Shown piece after piece: positions 24,708 through 46,741 of a stretch of DNA of 64,000 nucleotides. Made by a program: the position numbers and the translations under genes. The stretch is taken from contig JAVRCV020000015.1 of assembly GCA_034530615.2 (NCBI GenBank), forward strand, positions 96,001 through 160,000, written 5' to 3'. The stretch comes from Aulosira sp. ZfuVER01 (GTDB lineage: Bacteria > Cyanobacteriota > Cyanobacteriia > Cyanobacteriales > Nostocaceae). The notes below the pieces were generated by a model that searched no databases, had not been told where the DNA came from, and saw only the letters and a list, made by a program, of their open reading frames with translations. The first letter of the stretch is position 1. Each line of letters starts with the position of its first letter.

Positions 24708-24754
24708 TTAAGGAACTTGGAATTTACACCATCTTCAGTTGATCGCTTATAAAA

Positions 24755-24794
24755 CGTCATTGCGAGCGAAACGGAGTGGAGCGAAGCAATCGCA
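24755..24794. repeat. Cyanobacterial dispersed repeat
   Basis: cgtcattgcgagcgaaacggagtggagcgaagcaatcgca, a pattern I recognise as common in Nostocales intergenic DNA. Confidence 0.55.
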
Positions 24795-25088
24795 GAGGCT
24801 TTGCACTCCGTTAATGAGTCTTTGAACTCCGTTAACGAGGCTCTGAACTCCATTAATGAGTCTTTGCACTCCATTAATGAGTCTCTGAACTCCGTTAATG
24901 AGTCTCTGAACTCCGTTAACGAGGCTCTGAACTCCGTTAATGAGTCTTTGAACTCCGTTAATGAGGCTTTGAACTCCGTTAACGAGGCTCTGAACTCCGT
25001 TAACGAGTCTTTGAACTCCGTTGACGGGTCTTGAAGCTCCGTTAATGAGGCTCTGAACTCCGTTAACGAGGCTTTGATACTCGTTCAC
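24795..25088. repeat. Tandem array of fourteen 21-bp units
   Basis: Consensus GAG(G/T)CT(C/T)TGAACTCCGTTAA(C/T), no spacers; units 12 and 14 degenerate. Confidence 0.95.
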
Positions 25089-26134: not shown

Positions 26135-27043
26135 TTAGGGAATGGGAAGCGATCGCAATAATCGCTCTACAATACTTCGCGCACTACGGCCTCCCCTAGG
26201 AATGAGGCGATGACAAAGAACATGAGGAACAAGAAATTTCACGTCATCGGGAATCGCATAATCACGCCCCAAAATAAAAGCTAGTGCTTGGGTAGCTTTT
26301 TGCAAGGATACTGTACCGCGAGGGCTGACACCAAGAGAAATTTCCTCATCCTGCCTTGTCGCCCTTACCAATTCTAAAATGTACTGTTGCAAAGGAGTTT
26401 CCACTCTTACCTGAGAGCAGAGTTGGCGCAATTGAGCTACTTCTGCCAAAGTAATACAAGCCTGTAAATCCTCAACCTTGATATTATCCGCAAGGTTTTG
26501 CAACATTTGCAGTTCATCTGCTTCCGAAGGATATCCCAAACTCAAAGACAGCATAAACCGATCCATCTGCGCTTCTGGTAAGGGAAAAGTGCCTTGATAC
26601 TCAATCGGGTTCTGAGTAGCAATCACAAAGAAAGGCGTAGGAACAGCACGAGAAACCCCATCAACTGTGACTTGATGTTCCTCCATCACTTCTAGCAAAG
26701 CTGACTGAGTACGAGGTGTAGCGCGGTTGATTTCGTCAGCTAGCAGCACATTGGCAAATATTGGGCCAGGGAGAAAGCTAAATTCGCCGCTTTTCGGGTT
26801 CCAAATGTTAGTGCCAGTGATATCAGTAGGCAGTAAGTCTGGGGTACATTGTAGTCGTTGAAACTTACCATCAACTGAACGAGCCAAGGATTTAGCTAGA
26901 AGGGTTTTCCCAACACCAGGGACATCTTCTAGCAAAGCATGACCACCGCCTAAAAGAGCGACTAGCACCAAACGTATTGCATCTGTTTTACCAACGATGG
27001 TACGAGACAGGTTTTGTGTTAGAGCGTCAATTTTTTCTCTCAT
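26135..27043 (-). CDS. MoxR family AAA+ ATPase
   Basis: EDVPGVGKT, DEINRATPRTQSALLE, ATQNPIE; start trimmed to MREKID. Confidence 0.93.
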   Translation of the reverse strand: MREKIDALTQNLSRTIVGKTDAIRLVLVALLGGGHALLEDVPGVGKTLLAKSLARSVDGKFQRLQCTPDLLPTDITGTNIWNPKSGEFSFLPGPIFANVLLADEINRATPRTQSALLEVMEEHQVTVDGVSRAVPTPFFVIATQNPIEYQGTFPLPEAQMDRFMLSLSLGYPSEADELQMLQNLADNIKVEDLQACITLAEVAQLRQLCSQVRVETPLQQYILELVRATRQDEEISLGVSPRGTVSLQKATQALAFILGRDYAIPDDVKFLVPHVLCHRLIPRGGRSARSIVERLLRSLPIP

Positions 27044-27051
27044 GCACCACA

Positions 27052-27170
27052 AGATTGGGGAATTGGGGATTGGGCATCGGAAACAATTTTAGATTTTAGA
27101 TTTTGGATTTCAATCTAAAATCCAAAATCGCAAATCCAAAATCCAAAATTCCTTGTCCCTAGTCCCCTTT
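27052..27170. repeat. Short tandem heptamer repeats (STRR-type)
   Basis: attgggg, ttttaga and aaatcca runs. Confidence 0.75.
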
Positions 27171-27198: not shown

Positions 27199-28320
27199 TC
27201 ACTCAGAAAGCAAAACTTCTTTAGCGACAGTGCAATCAAGTTGAATTTGCGTTTTCAAGGCTTCTAGAGAAGAAAATTTTTGTTCGGGGCGGAGAAATTG
27301 TACTAGCTGCACAGCCAGCTTTTTACCATACAAATCTTCAGCCCAATCGAACAAATGAATTTCCACAGATGTATCAGTACCATCGACTGTGGGACGATTC
27401 CCGATATTCATCACTCCCAGTTGGGGATGAGCCGCATCTGGTGTTTCATCGAGAATGGAAACGCGGACAGCATAAACGCCTAGGCGCGGCAAAAACTTAT
27501 CTTTTGGGAGTTGGAGGTTAGCTGTAGGAAAACCAATAGTTCTACCAAGCTGCTTACCTTGAATCACAACACCAAAGAGAGTATAAGGGCGTCCTAGGAG
27601 GAGATTTGCGCTTTTGATATCCCCATTTTCTAGGGTTTGGCGGATCAGCGAAGTACTAATTGGTGGCTCTTGCGTTGCAGGAATGCTCAGACAATTAGTA
27701 TCTGCTGGCAAGTTACCGCTATCTGTATAGGTTTCTAAGGCAACAATTGTTACAGGAATATCATACTTAGCGGCGAGTAATTGTAAATCCTTGGCTGTAC
27801 CAGTGCGCTGTTTGCCAAAACAAAAATCTTGCCCAACACTAAGTTGCTGACATCTGAGTTGTTGTATGAGAATCTTTTCGACGAAATCTTCTGGAGATAA
27901 AGCAGATAATTCTTTATCAAAGGGCAATAGTACCAGCTGTTCTATCCCCAGCGATCGCAATTGTTCAACTTTCTCATCAAGTGGAGTTAATAAAGCACGG
28001 GGTTGTCCCGAAAAAAACTCCTGTGGATGGGGATGAAAAGTGACAACAGTTGAGTAGATATGTTCTTGTGTTGATGCTGTGGGGGTTTTTTGTTGGGGTG
28101 AGAGTTCTAGTACATTTCTCTCATCTGCCACCAAGTTGCGATCGCCCAAAGCAGTCTCTGGGACTTGTCTTTTTGCCCGCCGCAAAACCGGTTGGATGAC
28201 TCTTTGATGACCAAGATGCACACCATCAAATTTGCCAAGAGCAACAGCAGTTGGCGTTAGCAGCCCTTCGGTCGCAGACGCAACCCGCACAGAACACCCA
28301 TTTTGAGACAAATTTAGCAC
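27199..28320 (-). CDS. ribF: Bifunctional riboflavin kinase/FAD synthetase
   Basis: GKFDGVHLGH, ISTSLIR, GRTIGFPTAN, NIGNRPT. Confidence 0.96.
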   Translation of the reverse strand: MLNLSQNGCSVRVASATEGLLTPTAVALGKFDGVHLGHQRVIQPVLRRAKRQVPETALGDRNLVADERNVLELSPQQKTPTASTQEHIYSTVVTFHPHPQEFFSGQPRALLTPLDEKVEQLRSLGIEQLVLLPFDKELSALSPEDFVEKILIQQLRCQQLSVGQDFCFGKQRTGTAKDLQLLAAKYDIPVTIVALETYTDSGNLPADTNCLSIPATQEPPISTSLIRQTLENGDIKSANLLLGRPYTLFGVVIQGKQLGRTIGFPTANLQLPKDKFLPRLGVYAVRVSILDETPDAAHPQLGVMNIGNRPTVDGTDTSVEIHLFDWAEDLYGKKLAVQLVQFLRPEQKFSSLEALKTQIQLDCTVAKEVLLSE

Positions 28321-28383
28321 GTGGATTCTGGGATTTTAGGTTTATTTAGCTATCAGCCACAAGCTACCCTATGGGTAACTGCC

Positions 28384-28729
28384 AAGAGGAGGACACATTT
28401 TACGAATGGCCCACTACTCCACTGATTGTAAAGCCGGAGCGTCTTCGGCTCTTACCCTGGCATTTTGTGCCATCAGCCGAAGTGTTTACACTACTCCTTT
28501 GACTATTGTCGCAAGTGAGGGCGTCTTGCGCTGTCGGCTTGACGGCTCGTTGCTGAGTCCAGAGAACCCCACACCAAAGCCAAAAAGGCTCTAGCTGTAA
28601 ATTTTGGGTATGGCGAGTATTTTACCCGGTCAGACTCAATAGAGGTAGTCTCTGGGCATTTACGCTTCCCTGGTAAACCCGCAAAGGTGTCTTCCAGTTT
28701 TTGCAGTTTAGCCAAAAGTAACCTCTCCC
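28384..28729 (-). ncRNA. Candidate large structured RNA (~345 nt), family not recognised
   Basis: More than a dozen mutually compatible nested stems; G-U pairs favour the minus strand; no convincing ORF. Confidence 0.6.
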
Positions 28730-28788
28730 GCTTAGAGCTTGCGATCGCTAATCTAATCTAAAATCTACCATTGCTTCCACTGCAAGCT

Positions 28789-29685
28789 TTAGGCAGAAAA
28801 GTTGCTCACAGGACAAGATTCTGATACTGACATAGAAACAGGAATATTTAGTACCATTCCTTCCCTGGCCATGATTGCATTCGGAAATTGCTCAACTACT
28901 TGTTTACCTATACCATCCAAAAAATCATCGTTGTGTGCGGGGTCATGGTGGAAAATTACTAAAGTCTTGACTTTAGCAGCTTTAGCCACCTTCACAGCTT
29001 CTTGCCAAGTAGAATGTCCCCAACCAATTCTGGGCGATGTTGGAGAATGGTACTCGTCATCAGTATAGGTAGAATCGTAGATGAGGATGTCCGCATTCCG
29101 AGATAGCCACAGGACATTTTCATCCAAGCGATCGGGAAAATGTTCAGTATCGGTAATATATGCAGCAGCGCCATCACGCCAGTTAATTCGATAGCCTACA
29201 GCTTCACCGGGATGGTTGAGTGGTGCTGTTTCTACGGTAATGTCATTGATGTGTATTGTTTGCCCTGCGGTAATGTCACAAAAATTCAAGTTTGCCTGCA
29301 TAATTTGCAAAGGCACCGGAAAATTTGGGTGGAGCATTTGGTCATTGAGACGCTGTTCGATTGTGGAACCATCAGGAGCAATTGCGCCGTAGATCTTAAA
29401 ATTGTTCCCCTTGATAAATCCTGGAGCAAAGAAGGGAAATCCCTGCATGTGGTCCCAGTGAGAATGAGTGAAGAACAGATGACCTTCTGTCGGCATTTGG
29501 CGCAACAAAGATTGCCCCAAAACATGTAGTCCGGTTCCACCATCGAAAATTAAGCGTTTACCGCCCACTTGCATTTCAATGCAAGGGGTATTACCGCCAT
29601 AACGCACGGTGTGTGTTCCTGGACTGGGGATGCTGCCGCGAACGCCCCAAAATTGCACGGTAAATTGGTTATCTAACCTAGACAT
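28789..29685 (-). CDS. MBL-fold metallo-hydrolase
   Basis: WGVRGS, GGNT, THSHWDH, WGHS, FHHDP; start trimmed to MSRLD. Confidence 0.9.
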   Translation of the reverse strand: MSRLDNQFTVQFWGVRGSIPSPGTHTVRYGGNTPCIEMQVGGKRLIFDGGTGLHVLGQSLLRQMPTEGHLFFTHSHWDHMQGFPFFAPGFIKGNNFKIYGAIAPDGSTIEQRLNDQMLHPNFPVPLQIMQANLNFCDITAGQTIHINDITVETAPLNHPGEAVGYRINWRDGAAAYITDTEHFPDRLDENVLWLSRNADILIYDSTYTDDEYHSPTSPRIGWGHSTWQEAVKVAKAAKVKTLVIFHHDPAHNDDFLDGIGKQVVEQFPNAIMAREGMVLNIPVSMSVSESCPVSNFSA

Positions 29686-29978
29686 GGGTGTTGCTTGCTG
29701 GACTGAGCGGGCGATCAATAAAACAAATTGTTACTTATTTTTGTTCAGTTTATGCGGTATTACCATTTTGCTAGAGGAGAATTTCTTGGTAAAACAGCAT
29801 ACCTTTTTTAAGGCTAGTTTTGTAAACCTGAGTGAGATATTACTAAGCACAAGCCTTAAGTTGTTTGGGCTTAAGTTAGCAGTGAGATCGAGAGCGTTTC
29901 TACTTTATATCCTAAATTTGGCGATAATGTATTTAACTACCTCCAGAGTTTCAAAGTTTTCTTTGAATAACAAAGTTT

Positions 29979-44430: not shown

Positions 44431-46035
44431 TTAAAGTTCACCAGTAGCTAGCATCTGGATAATGCGAGGTGTTCCAGGATCGAACCCGGCCAAATCCCAG
44501 GAAAGAGGATCTTGAGGATCTACCAAAGTAATGTTGTAAGGTGCAAGGGTAACATACACTGCCTTGGCATTGGGATTCACCTTTTGGCGGTACTGCGTTA
44601 ATGCTTGACTGGGATGCTTAGAACCAGCCCATGACTCATTATCAGTCCAAAAGCAAACTACATCTGCTTTGAACTTATTCTTAATCATCCAGTCGTAAGC
44701 TACAGAAGCATCTGTTCCACCGAAGTTTTGATTGCTAGCTTTGCGAAGTGCAGAACTAAAACTATCTTTGGCTGTAATACCTAATTCTCGAAATTCGGTA
44801 GCAAAGCCGCGAATCATGTAGTTTTGCTCTGCCTTTGCTGTTACCAGTGCCATTGTAGTGGCGATTTCGCAGCAGCTTAAACCTACTGAATCAACTACAC
44901 CCCAAGACATTGAGCCAGAAACATCTACAGCGTGCATGAAAACTTTGCCTGTGGGTTGCACCATATCAAAAGATAGTTCAACCGCCTTTTCTAGGATGTG
45001 TACGATTCGGGGGACTGGTTCCCAAGTCTTCTGGCTGCGTCCTAATTTGCCACCAGATTGATAAGTCTTGAGAGCTTTCAAAACATCAATCGGATGGATG
45101 CGACCTTTGCGCAGATGTTCTTTGTTGTTGAGAACTCCTTCTACTCGCAGAATATTGGCACTTTCATCAGCGCGTAGTACCCCTAATTCGGTTAAAGAGC
45201 CAAGGTTACGCAGCATTGCACCAATTGGCATTTCCTGAAATAGTAATTGCCAAGCTTGTTTATCCATCTTACCCACAGGTGCAGCCATTTCATGAGTTAG
45301 GCGTCCTTGTGCGATCGCAGTATGGGTTTCGCTAGGATTGCGCTTGAGCCACTCATACCACCAAATCTGCGCCAATGCATCTGTTGGGATATCTGCTGGC
45401 AAATCTTCCCAACCTTTAACAACCCACTCAAATAATTCGCGGTGAGTTTCTGTAGGTGGTTTGACATGGAACAACCGCAATGCATCTCGGTGAGAGAAGC
45501 CTTGACGCTGTTGATATTTCAAAAGTTGATAAGCCAAACCTTTGACATCTTCCTGCGAAAGCCAAGTTTTTCCAGCTTCGCGCACCACCTTACCAAATCC
45601 CCGCAGCGATTTGGTATAGTTCAGCCATTCGTAGAAGTGGCTACCAGTGCGGACAACTTGCCCAAAGATTTCACCAAATGCCTTTTTGGCTTCTGCTGTT
45701 TCACCCATCGATAGCAGCACTAAAGCCAAGATAGGCGCACTATTGTTGATGGCGCGTCCATCGCTAGCATAGAGAATTTCCTCCGCAACACGCCCCGGAT
45801 TTTCCGCCACAGCTTGTTTGATAACTGCAACAAAATCTTCAGTTAATTCCTGCTTTCCCGCGTAGTAAGTGCTTTTTGCTGTGCCAATCAATAAGCAACG
45901 GCGCAGCATTTTCCAAATACCCGCATCAAACATATACCCGCCGGAACGTCCTTTAATCATTTCTGCTTCCCGTCCGGGGATAGGCTGATTTTGTGGTGTA
46001 TTTGTCTTCTTTTTAGTGAAGAAATTGTAATTCAT
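44431..46035 (-). CDS. rsr: Ro60/Rsr ortholog (TROVE plus vWA domains)
   Basis: LLKYQQRQGFSHRDALRLFHVKP, MLRNLG, RIHPIDVL; vWA DVSGSM, GGTD, TDNESW. Confidence 0.92.
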   Translation of the reverse strand: MNYNFFTKKKTNTPQNQPIPGREAEMIKGRSGGYMFDAGIWKMLRRCLLIGTAKSTYYAGKQELTEDFVAVIKQAVAENPGRVAEEILYASDGRAINNSAPILALVLLSMGETAEAKKAFGEIFGQVVRTGSHFYEWLNYTKSLRGFGKVVREAGKTWLSQEDVKGLAYQLLKYQQRQGFSHRDALRLFHVKPPTETHRELFEWVVKGWEDLPADIPTDALAQIWWYEWLKRNPSETHTAIAQGRLTHEMAAPVGKMDKQAWQLLFQEMPIGAMLRNLGSLTELGVLRADESANILRVEGVLNNKEHLRKGRIHPIDVLKALKTYQSGGKLGRSQKTWEPVPRIVHILEKAVELSFDMVQPTGKVFMHAVDVSGSMSWGVVDSVGLSCCEIATTMALVTAKAEQNYMIRGFATEFRELGITAKDSFSSALRKASNQNFGGTDASVAYDWMIKNKFKADVVCFWTDNESWAGSKHPSQALTQYRQKVNPNAKAVYVTLAPYNITLVDPQDPLSWDLAGFDPGTPRIIQMLATGEL

Positions 46036-46063: not shown

Positions 46064-46072
46064 AAATGAAAG

Positions 46073-46198
46073 GTGGCAGGGCAGGACTTGAACCTGCGAC
46101 ATCCGGCTTAAAAGGCGATAACCCTAATTCGTCGGCCTTTGCAGGCAAGGGGTGAACAAGGATGTTTTCGGAGCTCTACCGACTGAGCTACCTGCCAC
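46073..46198 (-). ncRNA. tRNA-like Y RNA candidate, unit 4 (no encoded CCA)
   Basis: Acceptor GTGGCAGG/CCTGCCAC, D arm GCTC-AGTCGGTA-GAGC, T arm GCAGG-TTCAAGT-CCTGC, 69-nt arm in place of the anticodon arm. Confidence 0.85.
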
Positions 46199-46276
46199 AT
46201 GAAAAGTTATGAGTTGTGAGCTATAAGTGCTGAGTTTGGAATTTTTAACTCAGTACTCAGCACTTAGTACTGATTT

Positions 46277-46403
46277 TGGTGTAGTGGGGCGGGAGTCGAA
46301 CCCGCGATGCTCGTCTTGCAAACGATAACCCTCAATTCTTCGGCCTTTGCAGGCAAGGGGTGAATAAGGATATTAAGCGCCTTACCACTTGGCTACCCAC
46401 CAC
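46277..46403 (-). ncRNA. tRNA-like Y RNA candidate, unit 3
   Basis: Acceptor GTGGTGGG/CCCACTAC then ACCA; D arm GCC-AAGTGGTAA-GGC; T arm GCGGG-TTCGACT-CCCGC; expanded central arm. Confidence 0.85.
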
Positions 46404-46453
46404 ATAACAATTCAAAATTCAAAATGCAAAATTCAAAATTCAAAATTAGATTT

Positions 46454-46579
46454 TGGGTGGCGGGGCGGGATTTGAACCCGCGACCTCTCGAACCCAAATC
46501 GATAACCCTAATTCGTCGGCCTTTGCAGGCAAGGGGTGAATAAGGATGTTTAGCGCTCTACCACTGAGCTACCCACCAC
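46454..46579 (-). ncRNA. tRNA-like Y RNA candidate, unit 2
   Basis: Acceptor GTGGTGGG/CCCGCCAC then CCA; D arm GCTC-AGTGGTA-GAGC; T arm GCGGG-TTCAAAT-CCCGC; expanded central arm. Confidence 0.85.
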
Positions 46580-46615
46580 ATAACAATTCAAAATTCAAAA
46601 TGCAAAATTAGGTTT

Positions 46616-46741
46616 TGGTGTAGCGAAGCAGGATTTGCATCTGCATCTCCAGAAGTGAAATCAAGGGGCATTTGCGATAACCCTCGATACATCGGCCCTT
46701 GCGGGCAAGTTGGGCGCTCTGGTATTTGAGCTATCCGCTAC
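46616..46741 (-). ncRNA. tRNA-like Y RNA candidate, unit 1 (divergent)
   Basis: Acceptor GTAGCGGA/TTCGCTAC then ACCA; D arm GCTC-AAATACCA-GAGC; atypical T arm GCAGA-TGCAAAT-CCTGC; shares the GCAA hairpin and AGGGTTATCG. Confidence 0.75.

Follow-up and report, generated by a model that had tools for sequence, protein, structure and literature searches.

Locus and extent of the element

The window analysed here, a 64,000-nucleotide stretch of the genome of Aulosira sp. ZfuVER01, carries an MBL–ribF–AAA operon on its minus strand (Table 1). The element sits within the 468 nt that separate the MBL hydrolase gene from ribF, upstream of ribF as a sequence-only reading of the window had placed it. 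We find that the element is real and family-wide, and that it is larger and differently folded than first described. The limits of that description (28384–28729) are too narrow, as the closing stem P1 and both conserved motifs fall outside them; the element extends over approximately 28321–28765 of the minus strand. The annotated ribF start is supported by GTG/ATG swaps and in-frame insertions. Genome-wide and profile searches gave no further copies in this genome, so that the element is single-copy. A 40-nt match on contig C31, antisense and upstream of a biotin-carboxylase-like ORF, was rejected as a paralog (profile E value of 0.58, not significant).

Table 1. Features of the MBL–ribF–AAA locus in window coordinates
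Feature	Positions	Strand	Remarks
MBL-fold hydrolase	28789–29718	-	PF12706, under RNase Z cut-offs; usual upstream operon neighbour
22-nt 5′ motif	28744–28765	-	Family consensus GATTTTAGATTAGATTGGTGAT; here AGCGAT replaces GGTGAT
Candidate -10 hexamer TAGATT	28750–28755	-	TAGATT in 112, TAAATT in 8 and GAGATT in 1 of 121
Octamer GCGATCGC, which we take to be HIP1	28741–28748	.	Created in this copy; 15,482 strand-counts in the genome
P1 5′ arm	28730–28739	-	This copy has mismatches relative to the family
Rod 5′ arms: P2 28715–25, P3 28705–13, P4 28684–95	28684–28725	-	Comparative rod
Variable multibranched interior	28401–28683	-	Homologous across several genera; repeatedly deleted
Rod 3′ arms: P2 28361–70, P3 28373–80, P4 28388–400	28361–28400	-	Includes the small hairpin 28363–79
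P1 3′ arm	28348–28357	-	Closing stem, 10 bp
A/C-rich initiation region of ribF	28321–28347	-	Conserved; 28332–39 complementary to 28758–65 (P0)
ribF, bifunctional riboflavin kinase/FAD synthetase	27199–28320	-	GTG start
MoxR-type AAA ATPase	26135–27052	-	Third gene of the MBL–ribF–AAA operon

Elsewhere in the window, at about 46070–46710 of the minus strand and directly upstream of a Ro60/TROVE gene (44431–46035), four tandem tRNA-like units follow one another at a spacing of 176–208 nt, separated by heptamer repeats; they have D and T arms and an insert in common. They most likely form a cluster of bacterial Y-like RNAs; the match to YrlA is weak (24.2 bits against a cut-off of 69), the tRNA match reaches 37.7 bits, and neither ARAGORN nor the Rfam scan of the whole window detected the units. 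An ORF of repeated seven-residue units (a 21-nt tandem repeat) occupies 24747–25088 of the minus strand, downstream of a large TPR-like ORF.

Distribution and sampling of homologs

A DNA search located the element in all 14 genomes of the genus (this one included) and in 19 of 24 further members of the family; none of 16 genomes from other families matched. In addition, protein searches placed ribF in 121 genomes at the order level and 201 at the family level, from which 120 upstream regions were picked by hand (35 outside the family and 85 inside). Among the 85 family-level (Nostocales) loci, chosen by the RibF protein alone, the element is present in 78; the 3′ motif, allowing up to five mismatches, was found in 84 and the 5′ motif in 78. 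Pooling with the earlier loci gave 169 family loci, 129 of them distinct, and 122 motif calls, which after removal of two false calls and addition of one variant left 121 homologs. The element is thus present in 121 of the 129 distinct loci, the 5′ motif being absent from eight. At eight loci (L069, L091, L135, L137, L198, L230, L054 and L190) the 5′ half is lost or degenerate and the 3′ motif is mostly kept; these natural losses are useful functional controls. An exact motif scan yielded 84 loci, of which 18 without a ribF match were dropped as chance matches, and the named relatives are almost all heterocyst-forming cyanobacteria. Because these exact-scan loci were chosen by their 3′ motif, conservation of that motif is inflated, and because kin are not independent the shuffle counts given below overstate significance.

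The element was not found among the 35 ribF loci from other Cyanobacteriales, where a covariance model also gave nothing significant; the gap upstream of ribF is usually short there and not alignable. The 5′ pattern occurs in nine of 190 genomes outside the family, compared with seven for a reversed control, and three weak matches of model R1 in 96 such genomes were all heptamer arrays on inspection and were rejected. By eye, many of the outside loci (L113–L132 and L138–L152) carry TATGT(C/A)AAAATGTAAA directly before the GTG start, and some also a TTGNC-N7/8-GT(C/A)AA near-palindrome; this is a possible leaderless promoter or regulator site.

Fold and comparative support

All 15 arm pairs that had been listed for this locus are indeed complementary (with arm limits of our choice for the small hairpin 28363–79), and the 14 main ones are nested, none crossing another. 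The multibranched fold built from them was not confirmed: 12 of the 15 arms have less than one expected pair in the ensemble of 28744–28318, and homologs retain the outer helix and most inner arms poorly. In 22 long homologs, 66.4% of its cells are paired compared with 80.8% for a comparative rod, the latter figure being favoured by derivation of the rod from the alignment on which it was scored and slightly lowered by one rod helix (columns 141–149) in the wrong register, with 3% paired. Two-sided changes in the proposed fold are at shuffle level in these homologs (27 pairs versus 27.6; 321/500 shuffles). The arms of the small hairpin are complementary, but it represents an alternative local fold without covariation, and no compensation was seen in the basal local hairpins (28363–79 and its 5′ partner; 500/500 shuffles).

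The minus strand folds better than the plus strand (z of -2.38 versus -1.11), and the ribF-sense strand is the more stable one in 94 of 121 homologs. Antisense transcription from the ribF start was rejected, being opposed by the asymmetry of G-U versus A-C positions and by the absence of such a unit from the part of the PCC 7120 table consulted. The GC-richness noted earlier was borne out (0.50 versus 0.42 for the window); control upstream gaps have a mean of 0.35 (n = 65), with 2% reaching 0.48. Comparison with shuffled sequence gave z of -2.4 to -3.0, but values of -3 or lower also occur in 9 of 65 control gaps, so that the single-sequence signal is modest; z is -2 or lower in 49 of 63 cores compared with 15 of 65 control gaps.

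P1 shows two-sided change at nine of its ten pairs among 36 short homologs picked from 70 (2/500 shuffles), with further pair types in the same set (4/500 shuffles). Among 110 homologs with distinct arm pairs, the arms of one homolog pair better with each other than with arms swapped in from the rest (-15.1 versus -11.9 kcal/mol; 0/10000), and the corresponding value for position-matched control gaps is -5.0 kcal/mol. The stem ends 26–29 nt before the ribF start in 103 of the 110 rows scored. A structure-blind mutual-information scan of both arms, based on the alignment only, failed to single out P1 as a distinct helix. In 107 of 121 homologs one helix takes in at least 85% of the element's length; among 65 controls, 42% reach a different threshold of at least 90%. 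For the window's copy, a fold constrained to P1 and P4 lies 5.7 kcal/mol above the minimum. As judged from the aligned homologs, conserved pairing with compensatory change is confined to P1, and the interior is weak in this respect.

In long homologs the rod P2–P4 is an irregular continuation of P1, and it is dispensable in short ones, the shortest forms having a rod of only about 12–14 bp. A long basal rod fits the homologs better than the multibranched fold proposed earlier, with weak covariation: two-sided-change cells exceed shuffles (0/500) and pair counts do not (64/500). Interior two-sided changes are not above shuffles in either of two tests (64/500 and 161/500), and the consensus fold of 11 long copies by RNAalifold received no bonus for covariation (+1.27). 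The length from motif to start ranges from 60 to 575 nt (median of 213 nt in 121 homologs), and sister rows in a quick tree of 125 MBL rows (nine left out) differ by hundreds of bases, e.g. 97 versus 367 and 125 versus 374. In pairwise alignments, single internal deletions spare P1 and often remove one side of P2–P4. In 61 pairs, identity is 0.68 in the interior and 0.82 in the rod, against 0.59 for four-fold sites in the MBL gene; the choice of alignment can inflate these values. At four loci (L007, L008, L010 and L012) a tandem duplication near the P2/P3 3′ arm repeats 18 nt of that arm.

A search for intrinsic terminators gave 0 terminator-like sites. A transcription attenuator or leader peptide was rejected on this ground and because indels are of all sizes; an ATG uORF of at least 20 residues is present in only 53 of 121 homologs.

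Conserved motifs flanking the folded domain

Columns of the 5′ motif are 88–100% conserved. The motif is related to the GATTTT(A/G)GATT heptamer-type repeats of the genome and is unique as a 22-mer. Within its candidate -10 hexamer, the A, A, T and T positions are invariant in 121 rows, and transcription is predicted from the sequence to start at about 28743. In L134, L183, L204 and L213 the sequence changes right after the hexamer and a different stem replaces P1. Elsewhere, the motif is kept with another or a divergent gene upstream (L062, L067, L075, L210 and L216). These two observations lead us to read it as an internal ribF promoter. No -35 box was found near the motif; as its ~20 near-invariant bases also exceed what a -10 box needs, a protein-binding or RNA role is conceivable.

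The two flanks could pair with each other (P0) in 90.6% of cells; none of the eight P0 pairs shows a two-sided change, and one is broken in 12 of 36. The element carries terminal 8-bp inverted repeats (GATTTTAG/CTAAAATC) that are common in the genome: the outer 8–11 bases of the flanks form an inverted pair of a repeat counted 166 and 204 times. We take these repeats to belong to the heptamer tandem repeats (STRR-type) or small dispersed repeats of Nostocales. A partner lies within 500 nt for 70 of 301 heptamer arrays, and the pairs often enclose short loops. The second weak covariance-model match proved to be a bare heptamer pair, and such pairs also precede other genes. Arrays of the AATCTAAAATC type (AAAATC) lie within 40 nt before same-strand starts in 32 cases versus 6 for the reversed orientation (this genome, crude ORF calls), which suggests that heptamer arrays are used as translation-start regions.

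The first 13 codons of ribF (28282–28320) are conserved even at synonymous positions (mostly 85–100%). They look like the non-coding motif that precedes ribF in other families, which hints that a signal at the nucleotide level overlaps the coding sequence.

Expression data

One 758-nt metatranscriptome contig of a relative covers 28002–28732, running from the element into the ribF coding sequence. It misses the predicted start by about 10 nt, and the MBL gene was uncovered in that run. As a single contig of ~90% identity that may derive from DNA, it is a weak hint only. Two further RNA-library runs (X2 and X3) contained short or divergent pieces only and were left out.

In Nostoc PCC 7120, alr4847-alr4848-alr4849 are listed as one transcript, for which the part of the table consulted gives only the upstream start (PMC10287535); the genes are labelled as MBL, riboflavin kinase/FAD synthetase and AAA, respectively (PMC13056922, consulted in part). 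As one start is listed per unit, this table is silent on an internal start. From its coordinates the PCC 7120 gap is inferred to be ~130 nt, i.e. a short form. In the parts consulted, neither this table nor the supplements of PMC5580265, PMC3610870, PMC4734099 and PMC9938897 gave an internal start at the gap, and the 327-sRNA table of PMC4734099 has no coordinate within the interval.

Comparison with known systems

An Rfam scan of the window gave no match at gathering level and one chance match by E-value; 20 homologous loci gave only a eukaryotic 3′ UTR, far under the cut-off. The scans confirm the earlier failure to match the element to RNase P, tmRNA, 6S and SRP RNAs or to an FMN riboswitch. 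The first four share its size range and a closed, multibranched or rod-like fold; they differ in that each has its own gene elsewhere, and those of this genome were located on other contigs or at other positions. No FMN riboswitch was found in this genome. RF00050 likewise lies upstream of a flavin-pathway gene on the same strand, but the ribF element has no match to its model, no fixed-size aptamer and no expression platform that we could find.

Like the repeats assigned above to the STRR type, the flanks are high-copy, enclose short loops elsewhere and stand before starts. Unlike them, the pair at ribF is fixed across the family, is extended into unique 22–23-mers and surrounds a folded domain of up to ~500 nt that is single-copy. 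Classification as a MITE or dispersed mobile repeat was rejected: the terminal inverted repeats are present, but several genomic copies are not.

The closest likeness is to structured 5′ leaders of cyanobacteria (PMC12873609) and the long 5′ UTRs of Nostoc (PMC10287535), as far as the consulted parts of these papers describe them: they lie in cis upstream of one orthologous gene and combine a long leader with a covarying stem on the sense strand. The ribF element differs in an interior that varies about tenfold between flanks and spacing that are fixed. The former study covered 931 orthologous groups, with up to 500 nt around each; its main text, in the portion available to us, does not mention a ribF structure, and the element may be among its unnamed structures. 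Full-text literature searches, with subscription papers largely outside their reach, gave no prior description. We regard the element as a structured ribF leader, apparently uncatalogued, in which the base is fixed and the interior elastic. The two possibilities raised by the sequence-only reading, a large ncRNA or a ribF leader, can be separated. The leader is upheld by the sense strand, the fixed spacing to the ribF start and retention beside ribF where no MBL gene lies upstream; the large ncRNA is not supported, given homologs of 60–575 nt, repeated interior deletion, no terminator and, as a weak point, an RNA contig that enters ribF. Most likely, the element is an mRNA leader that has not been catalogued and not a new free-standing RNA.

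Alternative interpretations

Four other readings are ordered here from the least to the most improbable. The element could be an intercistronic processing or stability element with no promoter of its own, in which the rod is cut (e.g. by RNase III) or blocks decay and so uncouples the ribF mRNA. The single operon transcript listed for PCC 7120 (in the part consulted), the long irregular rod P1–P4 and a 5′ motif conserved beyond the needs of a -10 box agree with this, and the RNA contig end at 28732 fits a processed end equally well. The motif is nevertheless kept beside divergent upstream genes (L067 and L075), conservation peaks on a TAnnnT-type hexamer and the rod shrinks in the shortest forms, and we regard this reading as unlikely, if still the best of the four. 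It is improbable, to a greater degree, that the locus is a mostly neutral relic, a degenerate nest of repeats or miniature transposons in which selection acts only on promoter and start-region bases and folding is a by-product. Flanks that are inverted members of an abundant repeat, similar pairs before other genes, an interior freely deleted (often in one arm only of P2–P4) and interior changes at shuffle level are what such a relic would show. Single copy, compensation in P1, identity of rod and interior above that of four-fold sites (with the reservation on alignment choice given above) and the excess of stable cores over control gaps speak against it.

A junction at P1, with GGUGAU on one side and AAAUAAACC on the other, might bind flavin or RibF and gate the start codon. 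Such a switch would explain the fixed position before ribF, the strong conservation of unpaired bases to either side of P1 and the lack of an FMN riboswitch in the genome, and this copy has alternative folds that cover the start, which does not imply their occurrence family-wide. However, there is no similarity to the FMN riboswitch and no terminator, the interior is dispensable, GGU/ACC pairing lacks covariation and GGUGAU is replaced in several taxa, this copy included; we consider the switch very doubtful. Least probable of all is a large, independent non-coding RNA that has a function of its own. It would account for a GC-rich region folding as one domain and for long forms common to several genera and conserved above four-fold sites; however, the tenfold length range and sister-taxon deletions leave neither a stable length nor a conserved core, no terminator was found, the RNA contig continues into ribF and the sRNA table of PMC4734099, in the part consulted, has no coordinate here. 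Both an FMN riboswitch and an independent large ncRNA are unlikely because the interior is dispensable.

A proposed promoter-leader model for ribF

With a probability of roughly 0.55, we interpret the element as a ribF promoter joined to a self-contained structured 5′ leader inside the MBL–ribF–AAA operon of Nostocales. A variable folded domain is bracketed by the 5′ motif, the compensated stem P1 and the A/C-rich start region at fixed spacing. The 5′ motif would act as an internal promoter with TA(G/A)ATT as its -10 box and a start at about 28743, and the RNA would consequently begin a few bases before P1. Judging from folding, P1 would close the whole leader on itself, which would leave the ribF start region mostly single-stranded at any leader length and the 5′ end double-stranded; the latter should also protect the leader from nucleases. 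In read-through RNA from the MBL promoter, the additional 5′ motif could pair with the start region (P0) and damp ribF translation, so that promoter choice would set RibF output.

The start region is predicted to be unpaired at a fraction of 0.62 in RNA from the predicted start versus 0.40 in read-through RNA, and RNA from the predicted start gives the larger value in 60 of the 62 rows, which represent 61 homologs because the window's copy was counted twice. Shuffled leaders fall only slightly short (0.57 versus 0.62; 44 of 62 rows), and the window's own copy is a counter-example, its start region being paired even from the predicted start (0.32 unpaired). As to origin, an inverted pair of heptamer repeats (GATTTTAG/CTAAAATC) may have been fixed in the ancestor of Nostocales, and the domain inside it may then have grown and now be trimmed by deletions under mild selection.

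A further-reaching proposal, which we rate as improbable, is that the fixed inverted-repeat pair works as a translation gate, with read-through RNA folded over the ribF start and silent and promoter RNA translated, and that the conserved junction next to P1 also reads flavin status or RibF. If true, the gate would give a lineage in which we found no FMN riboswitch a flavin-control element with a freely expandable domain.

The finding provides a family-wide cis-element for an essential flavin enzyme of nitrogen-fixing cyanobacteria, in which control of FMN and FAD synthesis is little described. Its natural series of lengths allows the function of a leader to be separated from tolerated growth, and it also offers a case in which to study how heptamer repeats of the genome turn into promoters and start regions.
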